A DNA stretch of 14,790 nt. It comes from a virus. Lineage: Duplodnaviria > Heunggongvirae > Uroviricota > Caudoviricetes. The notes under the pieces were generated by a model that was not told where the DNA came from, did not search any database, and saw only the letters and a program-made list of their open reading frames with translations. Where the stretch lies: IMG/VR virus record IMGVR_UViG_2657245448_000011. One strand, 5' to 3'. The position numbers and the translations under genes were made by a program. Each line of letters starts with the position of its first letter. The first letter of the stretch is position 1. Shown piece by piece: positions 2,901 through 11,253 of this stretch.

Positions 2901-3143
2901 ATGTTCGTGGAACTCGTTTATGACAAAAGGAATTTTGATGGGCTGCCCGGTGCAAAAGATATCATTCTGGGCGAATTGACCAGGAGGGTTCACCGGATCT
3001 TCCCCGATGCTGATGTTCGGGTTAAGCCGATGATGACACCGCCAGCGATCAACACTGACGCCAGCAAGCATGAGAAAGAACAGATAAGCCGTACTGTTCA
3101 GGAAATGTTTGAAGAGACTGATATGTGGCTGGTTTCAGATTAA
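2901..3143 (+). CDS. dinI: DinI-family DNA-damage-inducible protein (prophage-type paralogue)
   Basis: 80-aa ORF with strong RBS; resembles DinI in length and in the C-terminal acidic motif (MFEETDMWLVSD versus E. coli DinI ...SADDWFVSE). Preceded by a LexA box. Confidence 0.85.
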   Translation: MFVELVYDKRNFDGLPGAKDIILGELTRRVHRIFPDADVRVKPMMTPPAINTDASKHEKEQISRTVQEMFEETDMWLVSD

Positions 3144-3420
3144 ACGCCTTGAACCGTCATATTGCTTAAGTTAAAAAAATGTGAAATACGTCGTAGACAA
3201 TATCGCCCTGCAATTGAAATAAACTACGCTCCCTGTCAAAAACAGGGATAAATAAATCCGATGATTAAAAAAGCATGTTCTACCGTTGACTGGCCACTTA
3301 TCTGGAAGCCAGATAAGTGGCATTTTTTTTATGGGATTCATATGCACAAGAACGAAATGGAGAAGTTATTTCAGTCGATAGAAGCCCGACTCAGCAGGGC
3401 TGATCTTCCGAAACTGGTGA

Positions 3421-3801
3421 CTAAACACCTGGAAGGGTTCTATTCTGCGCATACCGTCCCTTACCAAACATCCGTACAGCGTAGTACATCACCGCACGCT
3501 TCCACTTTGGTACCCCCAGAACCTGCATCCCGTCCAGAAAAATGAGATCGGCTTCTTTCTTTGTCCGTAGCGCATTATCGTACATGTAATCATGAATGAT
3601 AGCGGCTTTGGCGTACCGACCATCAGGCGGGAGGAATGTCCAGAATAACCGTGGTACGCTCGCCAGATCGGTCACAAACCCAGCCGGGACCTTAATCACA
3701 TCACTGTTGTCATCCGAGAGGTAAAACTCGAAGGGTTCGTACACCCGCCATTTGTAATGACCCAGCATTTCCAGAATCGCCGGGGTGGTGAATTTACTCA
3801 T
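3421..3801 (-). CDS. DUF1353-like phage-associated protein
   Basis: Start trimmed to ATG at 3801 (MSKFTTPAIL..., 126 aa). Motifs VPAGFVTDLASVP and IIHDYMYD resemble the DUF1353 family often found next to phage tail-fibre genes. Family assignment is from memory, not a search. Confidence 0.6.
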   Translation of the reverse strand: MSKFTTPAILEMLGHYKWRVYEPFEFYLSDDNSDVIKVPAGFVTDLASVPRLFWTFLPPDGRYAKAAIIHDYMYDNALRTKKEADLIFLDGMQVLGVPKWKRAVMYYAVRMFGKGRYAQNRTLPGV

Positions 3802-3892
3802 TGACTTGTTCCGTCTGATGGTGAAAAAAATCATTCCACCAACAGGATCATTCCTTTCCCGTTGGTAACATACTAATAGGTTATTTTTCTTG

Positions 3893-3926
3893 CACCGCTC
3901 TCTCCCGTGATTGAGCGGTCTTTTTT
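3893..3926 (+). terminator. Rho-independent terminator-like hairpin (plus strand)
   Basis: 7-bp stem ACCGCTC/GAGCGGT with a 12-nt loop, followed by a run of 7 T. No plus-strand gene ends nearby. Confidence 0.45.
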
Positions 3927-4070
3927 TATTCGCGTATCAGTGCTGTCTCATGTTCTAAAATGAGGCTTTGATCATTGTTTTTCACAGGCTGATGGTGAAA
4001 TAAATCTAACCGCCCTGTGGGCCGGGTGCTGTAGATAAGAAATGTGCATAGCATAATAGCCTCGTAGTCT

Positions 4071-4111
4071 AATGGCCGCTTCTTTCCCAACAGGTGAAGC
4101 GGCCATTTTTT
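4071..4111 (+). terminator. Strong rho-independent terminator-like hairpin (plus strand)
   Basis: 11-bp perfect stem ATGGCCGCTTC/GAAGCGGCCAT with a 13-nt loop, followed by TTTTTTT. No plus-strand ORF precedes it. Confidence 0.55.
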
Positions 4112-4280
4112 TATTGAAAACTATCCCCACTCTGCCTGGCGTAATATTCCTGTGTAAAAATGAGATCCCGATCTCTTGCCTTCCGTTTCCTGCCGGTGAA
4201 ATACATTAGGTGTCCTCCGTAACGAGGACGCTGCATATTTACTACCGAAAATATCCTTTAGCAATCTTAATGGCACTTGT

Positions 4281-4320
4281 GGCCGCTTCTGTCTCTCCTG
4301 TACAGAAGCGGCTTTTTTTT
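4281..4320 (+). terminator. Strong rho-independent terminator-like hairpin (plus strand), related to the hairpin at 4071
   Basis: 11-bp perfect stem GCCGCTTCTGT/ACAGAAGCGGC with a 9-nt loop, followed by 9 T. Shares the GCCGCTTC/GAAGCGGC stem core and an upstream TAATGG motif with the 4071 hairpin. Confidence 0.55.
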
Positions 4321-4372
4321 TCAGCTCATCACCCAGCTGGTTCGATAGTGATGGTCCCGGCAGTGTTCACGA

Positions 4373-4744
4373 CTACCAGCGTTTTACGAATGGCTGAAAG
4401 TCATTATTGTTAACCCTGAAGCGTGTATACATACTGCCGTCTGCCATGAACAGGATTTGTGTTATCCATTCTTTTGCGCCACCCACCGCAGGAATGACCT
4501 TCTGTCCGTCATCGCCCGCGCCGAGTGAATCAAGAGTCTGCACCATGCCATACGCCATACTGCCCGATTGCGGATTACCTTCCGTATCCGGGGTGATCTT
4601 CATATAACCGACAGTTGCGGTGTTCAGATTTGCACAGACTGGCGCATCACCCGCATGGAACAGGCCAAACTTTCCGGCCAGCGAGACAATACCTGATGCT
4701 TTACCTGCCTGTGAGCCCAGCGTATTTGAGTTTATAATTATCAT
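4373..4744 (-). CDS. Hypothetical protein (123 aa), last gene of the tail-fibre operon
   Basis: ORF with ATG at 4744 preceded by AAGGTGA Shine-Dalgarno; 8 nt after the stop of the upstream gene. Gly/Ala-rich; no domain recognised. Confidence 0.6.
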   Translation of the reverse strand: MIIINSNTLGSQAGKASGIVSLAGKFGLFHAGDAPVCANLNTATVGYMKITPDTEGNPQSGSMAYGMVQTLDSLGAGDDGQKVIPAVGGAKEWITQILFMADGSMYTRFRVNNNDFQPFVKRW

Positions 4745-4752
4745 GATTGTTA

Positions 4753-5121
4753 TCACCTTTTAATCCAGTTACCCCAGCCTGTCAGCCAGTTCCCCCCTCT
4801 TGAGTGCAGTGAATTATCCGTGCCGTAGAACAACTGATAAGTTACTTCACCAGGCTCCAGAACTTCAGGGATGTATCGCGTACCATCCGGGCCAGCACCT
4901 TTTGATGATATTGTCCAGACAATACCCCAGGGCCATCTCGAATCTGGTACGTGAGGAACGGCTTTGGTGGAGCGCATGAACCCCGTCAGCGTCATGTTGA
5001 AGTCCATTACTTCCGTCATCATGCCTGCCGGCACTGAACCAAACAGCCCGGCAATGACCAGTGGATCGATATCCGGATGCTCTGGAGTAACGAGGGACGG
5101 GGGTTTGATATAGATAGCCAT
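4753..5121 (-). CDS. Hypothetical protein (122 aa)
   Basis: ATG-initiated ORF (MAIYIKPP...), same strand and operon context as the tail-fibre genes; Trp/Gly-rich; RBS is weak. No domain recognised. Confidence 0.55.
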   Translation of the reverse strand: MAIYIKPPSLVTPEHPDIDPLVIAGLFGSVPAGMMTEVMDFNMTLTGFMRSTKAVPHVPDSRWPWGIVWTISSKGAGPDGTRYIPEVLEPGEVTYQLFYGTDNSLHSRGGNWLTGWGNWIKR

Positions 5122-5238
5122 AGTGATTTACCAGTTAACCAGAATAATCTGGCTGTGAACTGAAGATACCAGCCCGCCACCATTCCCGGCTGACGAGCCC
5201 CCCAAAAATCCTGGTGCAGGAATGGGCATCTTAATCTC

Positions 5239-5472
5239 CTACGTCACGATGACACGGACACTGCCGTCATATCCTGATGCTCTGATCCACAGGCGGTCCG
5301 GCGGTGTGGCCGTGAATTTTTCATTATTCATATTGTGCGCAGGATGCGCGGCGTCAGGTTTCTGGGCGCTGGAGCAGACATCAGCCACCCCGTTTATCTG
5401 GACAAAAACCGTCTGACTGCCGTCCGTCAGCTCCTGCCACTCCCGCGCCACAATCATTTCTCTGGTTGCCAT
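5239..5472 (-). CDS. Hypothetical small protein (77 aa), paralogue of the adjacent 89-aa protein
   Basis: ATG start with GGAGG Shine-Dalgarno. Clear paralogy to the upstream ORF (REWQELTDG versus RAWQQLTDG; WIRASGYDGSVRVIVT versus WVRAAGYDNKVRLFIT). Confidence 0.6.
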   Translation of the reverse strand: MATREMIVAREWQELTDGSQTVFVQINGVADVCSSAQKPDAAHPAHNMNNEKFTATPPDRLWIRASGYDGSVRVIVT

Positions 5473-5498
5473 AACCCCTCCGGCCCCTTCTGGCCCAC

Positions 5499-5768
5499 TC
5501 AGTTTTTAATCACAGGAACGCTGGCTGCAGCTCTGTCAGTAATGAACAGTCTGACCTTGTTGTCATAGCCCGCGGCCCTCACCCATGCCTTTGAGGGCGG
5601 GGAAATAATAATGGTTTGTCCCGGGCACCTCAGGGAAGGCGCACACTCTCCCGGCCTGATATCGCTGTCACACAGTTCGATGACACCAAAAAACGCAAAG
5701 ATCATATTCTCCTCACCGTCGGTCAGTTGCTGCCACGCTCTTCCCACTTCCAGTACCCTGGTTCCCAT
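5499..5768 (-). CDS. Hypothetical small protein (89 aa), paralogue of the adjacent 77-aa protein
   Basis: ATG start with GGGAG Shine-Dalgarno, 15 bp after the tfa-like stop. Paralogous to 5239..5472. Confidence 0.6.
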   Translation of the reverse strand: MGTRVLEVGRAWQQLTDGEENMIFAFFGVIELCDSDIRPGECAPSLRCPGQTIIISPPSKAWVRAAGYDNKVRLFITDRAAASVPVIKN

Positions 5769-5782
5769 ACTGTCTCCCGCCC

Positions 5783-6385
5783 TTACCCTGTTCTGGTTAT
5801 GTCCTCCACAGATTCATTCCAGCCCACCCTGTAATTTCTGATGGCGTCCAGCACAGTCAGTGCATTCATTTCGGCTTTCATCTGCAACTGACGCTGGTTA
5901 ATCTGCATGCCCTTTTCAAACATCGCCTTTTCAATGGCGTCCGCCAGCGCGAGCAGTTCTTCCGCTGTCACCGGCACGACAGTGTTATCACCATCAGTCC
6001 AGGCAAAGCCATCCGGCAGTACATTTCGTGACGCCATCGCCACCGAGGTACTCAGCCGGGATTGTGTTTTTTTGCCATAATCCCAGCGCCTGCCGTTCCA
6101 GGTCATCAGATACTCTTTCTCTTCCTGCGCATCGCGCCAGGCGTTAATTTCATCCCGCTTAGCCTGTCTGACTGACGCCAGCATCGCCTCAGTAACGGTA
6201 AACGGTGTCACTTCGCCGTATTTTCCGGCGACCAGGTCTGTATAGAGCTGTTGACCATAGTCAGTCGGGTCATGGGCTGCTGCGGTATAGGGAAGATAGC
6301 GCTCACTGTCACTGAACAGCACCTGCACCGAAATCGTCCCGTTCTCGTTATATCGCCCGTGACGGGCATCAGTTATGGTTACCAT
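5783..6385 (-). CDS. tfa: Tail fibre assembly protein (Tfa-like chaperone)
   Basis: 200-aa ORF 10 bp after the tail-fibre gene. C-terminal region (LDAIRNYRVGWNE) resembles the conserved Tfa C-terminus (lambda Tfa ...AWKKYRVLLNRVD). Confidence 0.7.
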   Translation of the reverse strand: MVTITDARHGRYNENGTISVQVLFSDSERYLPYTAAAHDPTDYGQQLYTDLVAGKYGEVTPFTVTEAMLASVRQAKRDEINAWRDAQEEKEYLMTWNGRRWDYGKKTQSRLSTSVAMASRNVLPDGFAWTDGDNTVVPVTAEELLALADAIEKAMFEKGMQINQRQLQMKAEMNALTVLDAIRNYRVGWNESVEDITRTG

Positions 6386-6395
6386 CGATTTTCCC

Positions 6396-7661
6396 TCAAC
6401 GAATACGCTGGAAAAGCGTTAGTTGATCATAGACATCCCGGAAATACCCCATAGCCTGCCAAGTACCCGTAAGCACAACATTTTCAGTGATGATGATGCT
6501 CACGTTGCCATACAAATAAAGGCCACCTGGTTTTATGTATCTCCCTTCAATCTCACTTCCGAATCCACCTCCGCCTGAAGCATATCCCAGCACATAAGAC
6601 CCCACATCCCCCGGTGAAATAATTCCCCCGCCACTTCCCCGGATATACTCCATGAATGCGGCCATCGAAGTATCACTACCCTGTGGCTGCTGTGACACCC
6701 AGACATCATAAGCAGACGGTCCCGGCGTTTTGGCGATGTCCTGCGCGTCTTTGAGCGCCTGCTGTGCCCCCTGCTCATGAATATCGGCCTGCCGCTCGCT
6801 GTCTGCTGCGGCGTTTTTGTTTCGGTTAACCTCTGCTGCGACCTCCTCAACCCGGGTGACCTGCTCTGTGAGTTCGCCCCTTAACTGCTCCGCTGCCACA
6901 GGAACCGCTTCTGCCACCGCATCAGCTGCTGCGCTTTTTGCGGCATTTTCTGCGCGAACAGCATGCTCTTCTGCGAGGGTTTCGCTGCGCGCGGAAGCTT
7001 CCTCGCTGCTCTTCGCGTTTCGCGCCGAGGTCGCTGAGTTCTGCTCGCTCGTTGCCGCGTTCTCTTCTGAGCGTGCAGCTGACGCTGCACTGCCTGACGA
7101 GGCCTGGCTACTTCGCTCTGAAGCCTGCGCACTTTCTTCAGACTGGCGCGCAGAATCACCGGCATGACGTTCACTCAGGGCCGCAGCCTGGGCATCGAGT
7201 CCGGTCTGATGTGCCAGCCGGGCAACCTCCTCTTTCTCCCGGGCGGCGTCATTCCTGGCATCCTCCGCGGCTTTGCGGATTGCATCCATTCCGGACGCCG
7301 CGAGTTCAGCCTGCTCAGCAGCCTCCCGGGCCTGCTGCGCCATCTGCTCAAACTGCTTCAGTGCATCCGGAGTCAGATAATCCCCGCTCACCACCGTCAG
7401 GAAATCATTCAGCGTGCCGTCCGGCGAATCCGCATAGACATCAATGACGCCTACTTTTTTTGGAGGCCAGCCTTCCATGGCCAGAGTGACCTCATAGCGC
7501 GCCGGTTGCGCCTCAATACGATAGCGACCAGCATTTGTTCCAACGCTGGCCGTGGTGGTGACTACGACATTACTGGTGGTGTTCAGCGCCCGCAGCAGGA
7601 TCTGACAGTCGGGCACGGGTCGCCCGGCCCCATCAATGAGGGTGCCTGAGATTATCGGCAT
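6396..7661 (-). CDS. stf: Side tail fibre protein (Stf-like)
   Basis: 421-aa ORF after J. N-terminus (GTLIDGAGRPVPDCQILL...RYEV...GTLNDFL) resembles the lambda Stf N-terminal tail-attachment region; long Ala/Ser/Glu-rich low-complexity middle; Gly-rich C-terminal domain. Confidence 0.8.
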   Translation of the reverse strand: MPIISGTLIDGAGRPVPDCQILLRALNTTSNVVVTTTASVGTNAGRYRIEAQPARYEVTLAMEGWPPKKVGVIDVYADSPDGTLNDFLTVVSGDYLTPDALKQFEQMAQQAREAAEQAELAASGMDAIRKAAEDARNDAAREKEEVARLAHQTGLDAQAAALSERHAGDSARQSEESAQASERSSQASSGSAASAARSEENAATSEQNSATSARNAKSSEEASARSETLAEEHAVRAENAAKSAAADAVAEAVPVAAEQLRGELTEQVTRVEEVAAEVNRNKNAAADSERQADIHEQGAQQALKDAQDIAKTPGPSAYDVWVSQQPQGSDTSMAAFMEYIRGSGGGIISPGDVGSYVLGYASGGGGFGSEIEGRYIKPGGLYLYGNVSIIITENVVLTGTWQAMGYFRDVYDQLTLFQRIR

Positions 7662-7752: not shown

Positions 7753-10700
7753 TCAGCTGATACTGATACCCGCTGTTGATTTCTTCATGACGACTACCAG
7801 TAATTCACTGATACTGGTAGTTGGGGTTCGATTGCCAGAACCATTTGAAAAAACATTGAAGGTAAGGGTGACATGCCCTTTTCCTGCTGGCATATCAATA
7901 GCAGCCGAAAAAACTCCTGAAGAATCCGTAGCGGGTTGATGGAAAATGACCTGTCCATTATTTAATACCTGCAACTGACAGGTGGAATACCAGTACCTTA
8001 TGCCTGCATTACCAACTTCATTTATCTCATGCTTTGCTCCACGGAATAACACTGGTGGAATAATAATCTGCCTGTCAAAAGGCTGATCATCATAAATTGT
8101 CACCGTTACGGTACCACTGGCATAACTGCCATTCCGGGGAAAGGCTTTTCCCACCGTTTTAACAAGATCACCTTCAATCTGGTTGGCAGACAGTTTTCCC
8201 AGAATCCGACAGTTCTGGTTAACAGTAACGTTGTTAAGCGTCCCGGAATTCGCATTAATGTTGCCGCTGAAATCCGCGTTTTTCGCGGTCAGCTTTCCGT
8301 CCGGCGCCAGGGAAAACACCGGCGGATTCCCCCCACTGGTGATGGTCGGGGCATTAATGACTGTCGCACTGAGAAATTTAATCAGCGCTTCATTGATAAA
8401 CGTCTGCCCTCCCTGCGTGACCAGTGCAGGCGTGGTATTTCCATTTGCCGGATCGATAAAAGCCACCCTGTTTGCAGCAAGAAGGATCTGACTTAACTGC
8501 TCGCCATCGACCTCTTCTATTCCGGCACCAATTCCGGCGACATAAGTTACGCCATCTTTGGTCTTCTGGATTTTCAGCATATACAGGGCGTTAAGGTTAT
8601 CATTCGTGTCCTTCTGCACTTTCTGAATCTGCTGTATCGTGGCGCTTTGATCTTCCAGTGTCTTATTTACGGTCTGCTCTATTTCGCTTTTTGTGTCATC
8701 CACCACTTTGCTGATTTCAGCAATATCATCCTCGAGTAAACTGTTGTCGATCTGCTCAAACAACTCCTGTGCCAGATGTGTTTTTTGTATTTCACCGGCA
8801 AAAAAATCAAGATACCCTTGCGCATCCCGGCTGGCCTGACCCACCGCCTCTGCAAACGCTGATTTCCCCACCAGGTTGACGCTGCGTACGTAAAAATAAT
8901 GGTCCTGAAGCGGCTTAAGTCCGTCCTTGACCATATATGACGAAACACCCAGCCGCCGCGCGCTGGACGTAATCTCATCCGCGCTGTTGAGTTGTTTTAT
9001 GGAATACCAGAATTCGTACTGCACATCCGGTTGGTAGTAAGTCTGGTGCGGAGTCACGGTTATCTGAAAGTAACCCGGTGTCAGTTCAATGACCACCGGC
9101 GCTTCCGGAGGCCGGATACTGAAGTCCACCTGAGCAGGCTCCCCCTGCTGGCCAAAGCCATTGATGGCCCGTACGGTGAGCGTATAATCCCCCAGTGGCA
9201 GGGCGCGGAACGTGTACTCAGTGTCACTGGTGGTAGCGGAATCGACCAGCAGAACCGGATCATCGTCCTGACCACTGCCCGTGGTCAGACGGACCAGGAA
9301 ACGAACGCCCTTCACCACCCGCGGCGTATCCCAGTGCGCCCGGGCCTGGTACTGATTTCCTTCCGCTTCTGTGGTAACCGTCAGATGTTCCACTGTCGGA
9401 GGAACCACACTGTTGGTGGTGCCCGGTAGCGGATCAAAGTGCGCACCGTTGTCCACAATGGCTTCTTTCTCAGGCACATGCTGAAGGGCTGTTATGGCGT
9501 ACGTTCCGTCGCTGCTTTCTTTGATGCGTATGCAGCGGAACAGGCGCTGGCGCAGGGAAGGCAGTTTCAGCCCCCAGACACTGTACGCCGCAATCCCCGC
9601 TGGCATATTACTGACCGTTACCCGATCCGGGGCGGGCTGCCCGGTCACATCCACCGTAACCGGTTTTCCGTCCGCACCAATGATATTCAGCGTGGCAACG
9701 CCGGTTTTGGGTATTTCCACCTCCCGGTCGAGGGTCAGAGTACGTGTCATCGCATCCACGCTGAGGATGCGCCCGCCGATACTCACCGCGGCATAATCAT
9801 TGTCGCAGACCTCAATGATATCGCCCGGGGTGTGCCGCAGACCTTCTGCCCCGACAGAAAATTCCACCGTCTGGGTTTCCAGTTGTTCCGTTTTAATAAC
9901 CCACAGTCCGGCGCGGTGCGCCTGCCCCCGGCTCGTACAGCCAAACGCATCCATTTTCAGCAGATTCCGTCCGTCCCGCAGGATTGCCGCTTTATCTTCC
10001 ACCAGCAGAGTGGAGGTCTTCCAGCCGTTCTGCGGATCGGTGTACCGGACCTCGACCGCATTATGCCGGTCCTTACGCGCACTGTAACTGTAGCGGAACT
10101 GCACGCCCTGGCTGTCGGTGACCACATTGCTGTTGGTGTAGGTCCAGACTTTATCTGCAGGGCGGTCCTGAATGAACGTCAGCGTCCGCCCGTTCCAGAC
10201 CGGCATGCAGCGCATCACCGAGCAGAAATCAGCCAGCACGTCGTAAGCTTTTCGCTGGGTGGCCAGATAAGCATTAAACGTCATACGGGGCTCTGTGCCG
10301 CCAAAACCATCGGGGATCATCTGATCGCAGTACTGCGCGATGGCATACAGCGCCCATTTATCCACCTCGCTTATGCCTATGCTCCCGCCCATACCGTAAC
10401 GGGGGTGAGTCAGCATATCCAGCAGACACCAGGCCGGGTTACTGGTGTACGCCGGTTTAAGGACTCCATTCCAGATCCCGGTATATGTCCGCGTTTTCGG
10501 GTCATAATTTGACGGAACCTGAACAATGCGCCCGTAAATATGGTAATTGATCGTCACCTGCTGATTGCCAAACTGCTCTGCAGCCACCTTCAGCCCCACC
10601 ACAACCGTATTCGGGTACGCCTGCTTCAGGTCAGTGATTTCGGTATAGGATGACCAGGTGGATTTATTCTGTAACTGATCGGTGGTGCTGTCCGGCGTCA

Positions 10701-11253
10701 CCCGTACCATGCGAACATTGAACGGGCGCGGGGGTAACTCCTCCAGTACCACTGAGGCAAGAAACTGTGAGGTGGTTTTCCCGTTAATATAAATATCTTT
10801 GACCGTCACCCATCCATCAGCACGCTGGATTTGAAGAACGAGATGCAATGAGGTATTCAGACGATCGCCTTTGTTATTACTTTCCTGGAGATAGGGCGTA
10901 CCAAACGTGATACGCAGCCGGTCAATCTCCTGAGCGGTAATGGTCCGGGTAATGGGGGCATCCTGTTTGATCTCAGCGTTGACCATGACCTCCACGCCGG
11001 TATCTTCAAACCCCTCCAGCGGGGTCTGCTCCTGTTCACCGGCGTTATAAATTGCTGTGACACCGTGTACGTTGTAGCTGTCATCGTCATTTACCAGGGG
11101 GGTGTTGTTGATAAGGATACTTTGCATCCCCTTAACCAGTCCCTCGATCGGCCCTTCCCCGATGGCGTCAATGAAGCTCAGTTCCTGTACCGATTTCAGG
11201 TTATCCGGCTCTTCATACGGCGTGCTCTGCTTTTTCTTGTTCTTCCCACCCAT
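7753..11253 (-). CDS. J: Host specificity protein J (central tail fibre/tail tip)
   Basis: 1166-aa ORF colinear with lambda J from N-terminus (MGGKNKKKQ...DNLKS...) through conserved blocks ([53 protein letters not shown]). Confidence 0.95.

Follow-up and report, generated by a model that had tools for sequence, protein, structure and literature searches.

Lambda OOP RNA and P22 sar RNA are short cis-antisense RNAs of phages, whilst OmrA/OmrB, PrrF1/2 and Listeria LhrC1-5 are tandem paralogous small RNAs (sRNAs) with mapped promoters, transcripts and targets. The LhrC RNAs carry UCCC motifs in their loops, including the terminator loop. Moron terminators of lambdoid prophages each follow a gene of their own. 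In Salmonella islands, most orphan terminators mark sRNAs; one of these, IsrG, is a cis-antisense RNA that overlaps a phage tail-fibre gene at its 5′ end, and its expression is inverse to that of the gene (PMC2330248). The PasA and PasC sRNAs adjoin prophage sialate O-acetylesterase genes in enteropathogenic and enterohaemorrhagic Escherichia coli (bioRxiv 10.64898/2026.05.13.724894). Here we describe a non-coding island at positions 3802-4372 of a 14,790-nucleotide (nt) stretch of prophage DNA (IMG/VR virus record IMGVR_UViG_2657245448_000011; the whole stretch is called the window), in which tandem modules, each ending in a plus-strand terminator hairpin, lie upstream of a minus-strand DUF1353 gene.

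The modules share features with each of these systems. As with OOP and sar, the phage is temperate, a terminator stands against two co-directional genes in their intercistronic region, and the implied RNA would be ~70-130 nt long and antisense to that region. However, the modules have no recognisable promoter and no sequence similarity to OOP or sar, they come in 3-5 tandem copies, and the target would be a late-region phospholipase-family gene rather than an immunity or lysogeny gene. Like IsrG and the island sRNAs, they present orphan intrinsic terminators in a prophage intergenic region, but the Rfam IsrG model matches neither the window nor the related loci, and transcription of the units is putative. 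With the tandem sRNAs they share adjacent copies that have conserved ends and a divergent middle, and their TCC/CCC-rich loops resemble those of LhrC; here, however, only terminators are demonstrable, and any transcript may begin downstream of the conserved 5′ block instead of including it. PasA/PasC and the modules are both small terminator-bearing non-coding elements immediately downstream of a SASA/DUF6645 esterase gene. In the Shiga toxin (Stx)-type case the terminator is co-directional with the esterase gene, in the Q-lysis region (L182), whereas here it faces the opposite way, in the tail region; homology to PasA/PasC was rejected on this orientation and on the lack of shared sequence. 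Moron and boundary terminators are likewise factor-independent and sit at the border of late operon and accessory genes, whereas the units follow no gene on their own strand and are repeated modules with a conserved upstream box. Orphan and antisense prophage terminators are already known. What is new is a tandemly amplified leader-terminator module that is tied to an esterase-phospholipase pair and absent from Rfam and the phage collections searched.

Tandem modules upstream of the DUF1353 gene

The DUF1353 gene (3421..3801, minus strand; 126 amino acids, aa) belongs to the TtaP-like phospholipase A2 family (Pfam PF07087, E=1e-31; NCBI assembly gene calls). TtaP, also of the DUF1353 family, is the phospholipase A2 of the typhoid-toxin islet (PMC11525133). 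The gene most likely starts at the ATG at 3801, as in the NCBI assemblies, so that the spacer upstream of it is 3802-4372. The original prediction, an earlier reading of the same DNA, had placed three plus-strand terminator hairpins here, and these are present within 1-2 nt of where it put them. Together with the terminator of dinI, on the other side of the DUF1353 gene, the plus-strand terminators of the window are:

3293..3329, plus strand: dinI terminator, the first of the four, with a 13-base-pair (bp) stem, 3-nt loop and T8
3894-3900/3913-3919, plus strand: H1, 7-bp stem ACCGCTC/GAGCGGT, 12-nt loop, then C and T7 (3921-3927)
4071-4082/4096-4107, plus strand: H2, 12-bp stem AATGGCCGCTTC/GAAGCGGCCATT, 13-nt loop, T7 (4106-4112)
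4282-4292/4302-4312, plus strand: H3, 11-bp stem GCCGCTTCTGT/ACAGAAGCGGC, 9-nt loop, T9 (4313-4321)

The RNA folding energies of H1, H2 and H3 are -12.5, -22.8 and -21.7 kcal/mol (z = -4.0, -5.8 and -4.4), and no shuffled sequence folded as well (0/200). A custom finder (perfect stem of at least 7 bp with at least 4 G-C pairs, loop of 3-16 nt, T run of at least 6) was applied to both strands of the whole 14.8-kb window. It returned exactly four sites (3293, 3894, 4073, 4282), all on the plus strand and none on the minus strand. In 2000 dinucleotide shuffles of the island the mean was 0.002 sites, and three were never reached. A standard terminator scan missed H1-H3 because its loop limit is 8 nt, and their loops are 9-13 nt. 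All three have the G+C-rich hairpin and U-tract of intrinsic terminators, on the plus strand only, with loops larger than is typical. As judged from structure and conservation, H1-H3 are very probably functional plus-strand terminators inside a conserved, copy-number-variable module. They can act only on transcription that runs antisense to the late genes of the phage.

Repeat analysis and a profile search divide the island into three tandem units, each with a box region, a stem-loop (SL1), a linker and a terminator hairpin:

3802..3927, plus strand: unit 1, with box CTGATGGTGAAAAAAATC (3815-3832), SL1 (3838-3866), linker (3867-3893), H1 (3894-3919) and T-run (3921-3927)
3928..4112, plus strand: unit 2, with box region 3955-4006 (TAAAATGAGG..GATC..TTGTTT..CTGATGGTGAAATAAATC), weak SL1, linker, H2 (4071-4107) and T-run (4106-4112)
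4113..4321, plus strand: unit 3, with box region 4155-4207 (AAAAATGAGATCCCGATCTCTTGCCT..CTGCCGGTGAAATACAT), SL1 GTCCTC/GAGGAC (4212-4229), linker, H3 (4282-4312) and T-run (4313-4321)

The box region of ~55 nt consists of AAAATGAGA, GATC, TTGyyT, 10 nt and CTGnnGGTGAAAwAmAT, and the box lies ~80-90 nt upstream of every hairpin. A stem-loop, SL1, follows the box in every unit though the SL1 sequences are unrelated. Next come an AU-rich linker of ~25-45 nt and the hairpin, with its core CGCT(T)C/G(A)AGCG, large pyrimidine-rich (C/U) loop and T-run. The H1 core (CCGCTC/GAGCGG) is the H2/H3 core (CCGCTTC/GAAGCGG) minus one pair, and nhmmer matched the unit model to unit 2 with E=2e-47 and to unit 3 with E=1e-46. 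On these repeat and profile results, the island is three old, diverged tandem copies of one ~190-bp non-coding module. The original prediction had taken the last two hairpins for a duplicated unit. Their duplication is real, but this view was too narrow, as whole ~190-bp units and all three hairpins are involved. The TAATGG motif that it noted upstream of the two has copies at 4070-4075 and 4268-4273; relatives do not conserve the second of these and read AAGTAGCAC there instead. No further copies of the unit were found elsewhere in the window. Dispersed repeats (repetitive extragenic palindromes and bacterial interspersed mosaic elements, REP/BIME; enterobacterial repetitive intergenic consensus, ERIC; miniature inverted-repeat transposable elements, MITE) were rejected, there being no blastn match in E. 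coli genomes, plasmids or phages and no other copy in the window.

The unit 1 box region coincides with the start codon, first codons and 5′ leader of the DUF1353 gene. Therefore, units 2 and 3 carry degenerate copies of a gene start region with no open reading frame (ORF) behind them. In units of the U1 type (window 3815-3866, L008 and unit 1 of L010c) the 5′ arm of SL1, CACCAnCAG, is complementary both to the box CTGnTGGTG and to the 3′ arm CnGnnGGT. Two hairpins, which exclude each other, can thus be drawn just upstream of where DUF1353 starts; the U1 type of L010a lacks this feature. An inverted copy of the unit 3 box, an exact 15-mer (TGTATTTCACCGGCA), occurs at 8786-8805 inside gene J, whose coding strand there reads ..GCCGGTGAAATACA (..AGEI..). 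This is probably a chance overlap with a coding motif.

The view that the island holds no convincing ORF, and that its terminators have nothing annotated to terminate, was borne out. The six small ORFs of the island have no PHROG family match. Only one frame is open in three lineages (4111-4236, minus strand, 41 aa, basic), and it shows 1 synonymous against 9 nonsynonymous codon changes; it was rejected as a gene because it is not under purifying selection. A plus-strand ORF beginning ATGAGA was rejected as it is not conserved across units. Type I toxin-antitoxin repeats (ibs/sib, ldr/rdl) were also rejected, since no family matched and the recurrent ORF is basic and evolving nonsynonymously.

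Related arrays, copy number and constraint

Blastn searches with the island, in near and distant modes, gave no match in 5,426 complete E. coli genomes, and none was found by blastn in 72,556 PLSDB plasmids and 50,697 INPHARED phage records. The L010 island likewise had no match in the E. coli genomes. The only homologous arrays came from look-ups of exact protein matches and from a single IMG/VR contig. In IMG/VR pattern scans only L010 was homologous, the others (L009, L015-L018, L046-L048) being chance matches. A genome-contig search with the DUF1353 protein returned Citrobacter braakii only, and a metagenome scan with the pattern TTTCCTGCNGGTGAAATA gave only chance matches among the matches listed. 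Loci identical to the window occur in a few NCBI draft assemblies labelled Escherichia coli, adjoining yciEFG-trpA. The arrays are as follows:

L183 (Logan run assembly): 5 units between the esterase and DUF1353 genes
L010 (IMG/VR) and L026-L036 (E. coli drafts and metagenomes): three DUF1353 cassettes, with 4, 2 and 3 units
L008 (Logan run assembly): 3 units between the esterase and DUF1353 genes
Window (E. coli draft): 3 units
L184 (NCBI draft): 1 unit, with an unrelated hairpin

A tail-region gene for a SASA/DUF6645 sialate O-acetylesterase borders the arrays upstream. Each array is flanked by two minus-strand genes (esterase and DUF1353), and the outermost hairpin comes directly after the esterase stop codon. 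The esterase gene is intact in L008, L010 and L183 and lost from the window except for a 65-nt relic of its C-terminal part (4335-4400, minus strand; tblastn, 59% identity over 22 aa, E=0.007-0.016; TLVVVNTAGTITIEPAG aligned to TVQVVVNNAGIIAIEPAS), which overlaps the 3′ end, and last codons, of the neighbouring 123-aa gene. Relic C-terminal codons at the unit junctions were considered and rejected; the real relic is only in the flank outside H3. The H3-type unit always adjoins the esterase gene and the H2-type unit comes next, an order common to diverged lineages. The L010 group also has a truncated DUF1353 copy and an esterase fragment. At ~5990 of L183 the DUF1353 start is ATC and not ATG (antisense ACTGAT), and the called ORF extends to 218 aa through unit 1; this DUF1353 gene may be a pseudogene or use an alternative start.

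Within the units, conservation is unevenly distributed. Between the window and L008 the stems and box regions are 85-100% identical and SL1 and the linker 56-74%, and direct reading of the sequences shows the H2 stems to be identical. The family comprises 18 distinct hairpins, each with its T-run preserved, on the plus strand only; 17 have T6 or longer and the remaining one has TTTTCTTT. The stem is intact in 17/18, the L010c unit 2 hairpin having two mismatches, and two compensatory double substitutions preserve stems (GGCTGCTTC/GAAGCAGCC and GCCGCTC/GAGCGGC). The 18 loops are 9-17 nt long and 75% pyrimidine, with TCC or CCC in 16. Compared with the 3-nt loop of the dinI terminator, such large C/U-rich loops are a poor design for a pure terminator. 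Moreover, diverged lineages have all retained arrays of 2-5 units, and the unit types that adjoin the esterase gene are the same in each. Since paralogues cannot be aligned outside boxes and stems, the units must be old, yet they have been maintained.

These data bear on two further readings. In one, the extra units are inert recombination scars, the remains of duplicated esterase-DUF1353 cassettes whose coding parts were deleted, and the hairpins survive only because they are young or act as crossover points. The process itself can be seen in L010 and L026-L036, where DUF1353 occurs three times, once truncated, along with a fragment of the esterase gene and sets of 4, 2 and 3 units. The window keeps its esterase relic, the start region of DUF1353 in unit 1 can be aligned to the box regions of the other two units, and the L010c unit 2 hairpin carries its two mismatches. 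However, the units are old and have 17/18 hairpins and all T-runs intact, with compensatory changes. Their order is common to diverged lineages, and phage genomes rarely keep 400-900 bp of useless DNA. We therefore regard scars as an improbable explanation. The original prediction had also suggested 3′ ends of lost genes, so that the hairpins would be terminators of plus-strand cargo genes since deleted. L019 offers a parallel, as an opposite-strand acyltransferase gene occupies the slot there and has its own weak terminator hairpin (with an interrupted T-run) at its far end. However, no plus-strand gene or relic lies in or beside the units in the window, L008, L010, L026-L036 or L183, and the sole lost gene that could be traced, the esterase, was on the minus strand. 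We consider this very improbable, the least likely of the explanations considered.

Possible transcription of the modules

Sequence alone does not decide between antisense RNA genes and a barrier to transcription. We tentatively favour the former, in which the modules are short antisense-strand transcription units or RNA genes. Plus-strand transcription would begin at a promoter, weak or dependent on a factor, that lies within the box region or shortly past it, and would end at the hairpin of the unit, yielding RNAs of ~90-150 nt. Each would have a stem-loop at its 5′ end, continue as an AU-rich single strand and close with a long-U terminator whose C/U-rich loop is exposed. The RNA of unit 1 would be cis-antisense to the DUF1353 leader, in the manner of lambda OOP and P22 sar, and could hold down a potentially membrane-damaging phospholipase, whilst units 2 and 3 would give paralogous RNAs.

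Hypothetical RNAs starting just after the box are 92-114 nt long and fold into a 5′ stem-loop, ~25 unpaired AU-rich nt and the terminator (z -3.0 to -4.5). They have the 3′ module of Hfq-type sRNAs, namely an AU-rich stretch, a terminator hairpin and a U-tail of at least 7. At 93-126 nt upstream of the ATG of DUF1353, H1 is placed like a reverse-facing intercistronic terminator of the OOP/sar type. Candidate promoters for unit 1 are TTGACT-19-AAAAAT and TTGTTC-17-AATCAT (U1 type), with a predicted start near 3838-3841. From this start, the candidate RNA would cover the leader upstream of the ribosome-binding site and not the site itself. TTGCCT-20-TACATT is present in 7/7 copies of the U3 type, and two L010 units have TTTACC-16/17-TATGAT at their 5′ edge. 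RNA units fit better than a bare stack of terminators because the box is at a fixed distance, the SL1 structure is kept without its sequence, the loops are C/U-rich and the array is retained.

Several observations weigh against RNA genes. The original prediction had proposed small RNA genes; the anatomy of the units fits this, but promoter prediction upstream of the hairpins and an Rfam scan gave it no support. No sigma-70 promoter above chance was found on either strand of the island with a standard tool and our own position weight matrix. The best score was 9.4, the mean best of shuffles being 10.3 (per-unit p 0.4-0.5; combined p 0.2, equal to that of the control strand). Hexamers resembling -35 (TTGNNT) and -10 (TAnAnT) elements flank the box in most units, with a spacing that is mostly 19-22 bp. 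Rfam 15 gave no match in the window at the gathering score, and only chance-level eukaryotic matches at E<=10 in 3700-4500. The unit 1 box is the translation start region of DUF1353, and its conservation could reflect the sense strand. G-U versus A-C asymmetry in SL1 and RNAalifold covariation give a mixed signal from few sequences, favouring neither strand. Finally, the family is rare, being found in a few E. coli drafts and metagenome or run assemblies, and comparative power is low. The unit arrays of 17 related loci also had no Rfam match; the families covered include IsrG, IsrK, STnc100, AgvB, AsxR, Sib, Sok and C4. By eye, the box held no convincing sigma-E, sigma-28, sigma-54, LexA, integration host factor (IHF), nut/boxB or MerR-type dyad motif.

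The alternative is that the hairpins form a one-way barrier with no functional RNA, stopping plus-strand transcription that would run antisense into the tail-fibre and late genes. Such transcription could come from the SOS-induced dinI, from other inward-pointing accessory genes or from read-in at the prophage end; extra copies would raise termination efficiency and would have arisen by unequal recombination. Two LexA-box-like sites (2846-2861, CTGTTTATGCATACAG; 2868-2883, CTGGCATTCAGCACAG) lie in the divergent umuD-dinI promoter region, so that the prophage has its own SOS-regulated umuDC and dinI beside the tail genes. Plus-strand dinI points toward DUF1353, the hairpins and the tail genes. 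All four strong terminators of the window face the same direction and cluster at the accessory/late border, none faces the opposite way, and no promoter above chance lies within the units. However, a barrier leaves the conserved 55-nt box, the box-hairpin distance and the large C/U-rich loops unexplained in units without an ORF, where a tight, dinI-like loop would be expected of a pure terminator. Moreover, dinI already has a very strong terminator of its own (kept beside the DUF1353 3′ end in L008, L010 and L026).

Four more prophage lineages also have antisense-facing terminators, of unrelated sequence, at 71-95 nt upstream of where DUF1353 begins:

Citrobacter braakii (L011): antisense-facing terminator upstream of DUF1353
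Salmonella P2-like (L022/L023): antisense-facing terminator upstream of DUF1353
Salmonella Mu-like, two lineages (L037/L038 and L039/L040): antisense-facing terminator upstream of DUF1353

In all four the terminator comes directly after the stop of the preceding gene, and no sense-facing terminator is present there. L184, with the esterase context, is a fifth case, having its unrelated antisense-facing hairpin in the same place. These five lineages keep only the position and orientation of the terminator and not its sequence, which agrees with a barrier. The recurrence of this layout, which H1 shares, also counts in favour of antisense RNA genes. In L011, however, the genes downstream of DUF1353 are co-directional, leaving no nearby convergent promoter to be shielded against. 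No such terminator is found in L014, L041, L169 and L179, in which DUF1353 either comes after an invertible segment or overlaps, or comes straight after, the gene before it. In L019, an unrelated P2-like Salmonella prophage, the acyltransferase gene fills the slot between a fibre-assembly gene and DUF1353. A barrier alone seems to us possible but somewhat unlikely. It comes close behind the RNA genes, owing to the absence of a convincing promoter and the four terminators clustered at the accessory/late border, facing SOS-driven dinI.

In Salmonella Mu-like prophages, strains differ in the orientation of the tail-fibre segment upstream of DUF1353 (L169 versus L170). L169 has a gix-like site, TTCCCGTAAACCTCGGTTTAAAAGAA, at ~230 bp upstream of the gene, yet no invertase gene adjoins it. 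Invertase sites of the Din family (gix/cix/hix; 26-bp, AAACC..GGTTT core, inverted pairs) were rejected for the window, as the box lacks the core and the boxes are direct repeats.

It could instead be the minus strand that functions, the units being repeated 5′-leader elements of the late or DUF1353 mRNA. The loops would then show GGAG/GGA (ACAGGAGAGA, CACGGGAGAG), and the elements might be RNA stabilisers, processing sites or sites for CsrA-like or other translational regulators. The unit 1 box is the DUF1353 leader, the A-C mismatches of the U1-type SL1 on the plus strand are G-U pairs on the minus strand (window, L008, L010b), and minus-strand folds are equally stable. However, the strictly conserved T-run immediately 3′ of every stem is a terminator signature on the plus strand, whereas a 5′ A-run on the sense strand has no known role. 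Moreover, the G-U pairs of other units favour the plus strand, and units 2 and 3 precede no ORF. Sense-strand leaders are accordingly given little credence.

Returning to antisense RNA genes, a fuller version of that reading can be proposed, though we hold it to be doubtful. The modules would be an undescribed, copy-number-variable family of phage antisense or small RNA genes guarding a TtaP-like phospholipase A2 gene. Unit 1 would act as a cis-antisense RNA to the DUF1353 leader, and the paralogous RNAs of units 2-5 would pair their exposed C/U-rich terminator loops with purine-rich (Shine-Dalgarno-like) sequences. The promoters, whose conserved spacer of 19-22 bp would be the box, would need a phage or host factor that distorts the spacer, which would make the RNAs responsive to a signal.

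Neighbouring genes and significance

The window is the tail end of a lambdoid prophage, with its late genes on the minus strand:

11253..7753, minus strand: gene J, late gene
7661..6396, minus strand: tail fibre gene, late gene
6385..5783, minus strand: DUF4376 assembly protein gene, late gene
5768..4373, minus strand: four small 'cargo' genes, after the DUF4376 gene and before the non-coding island

Past DUF1353 are accessory genes: dinI (2901..3143, plus strand), umuDC (minus strand) and two plus-strand genes including that of an SRAP peptidase. The four small genes at 4373-5768 are two diverged paralogous pairs of 89/77 aa and 122/123 aa. The 122/123-aa pair (33% identity, E=2e-12) has no Pfam or PHROG family, and the 77/89-aa pair (36% identity) belongs to phrog_4772, of unknown function. 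In Salmonella Mu-like prophages (L039) genes of 77, 126 and 124 aa precede DUF1353 in the same order, a likeness of size and order only. Homology of the upstream 123-aa gene to a 127-aa gene of L008 was rejected, none being found.

Related loci carry other genes and RNAs near the arrays. An srgE-like gene (PF06977, SdiA-regulated) occupies the accessory slot in L010 (6495-7379) and L026 (673-1497), oriented like the unit terminators. Ahead of it stands the 5′ half of a unit, which has box, SL1 and linker but lacks the hairpin, and the gene ends at the terminator GCCACTTATCTGG, the same as that after dinI in the window. At 10463-10652 of L010 (minus strand), ~1.1 kb past the third DUF1353 copy, adjacent Rfam matches to isrK (79 bits) and C4 antisense RNA (75 bits) were found; both are known phage regulatory RNAs and are not in the window. 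In L008 a 205-aa tyrosine recombinase (395-1012; PF00589, FimB/FimE size) is encoded immediately upstream of the esterase gene, on the strand opposite to it. It is possibly a local invertase or shuffling enzyme; no inverted target sites for it were found.

On either reading, orphan terminators by themselves are no proof of sRNA genes, and for a family this rare the general impact is modest. If the modules only form a barrier, they would show how a prophage shields its late operons from SOS-driven accessory promoters, and that such shields can arise by amplification of a whole intergenic module. If they are transcribed, they would constitute a new phage-borne RNA family at the end of the tail operon, arranged in tandem arrays whose copy number varies. 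Tied as it is to a phospholipase-family gene related to TtaP, this family would allow antisense control to be tested on a late gene that is potentially self-damaging.

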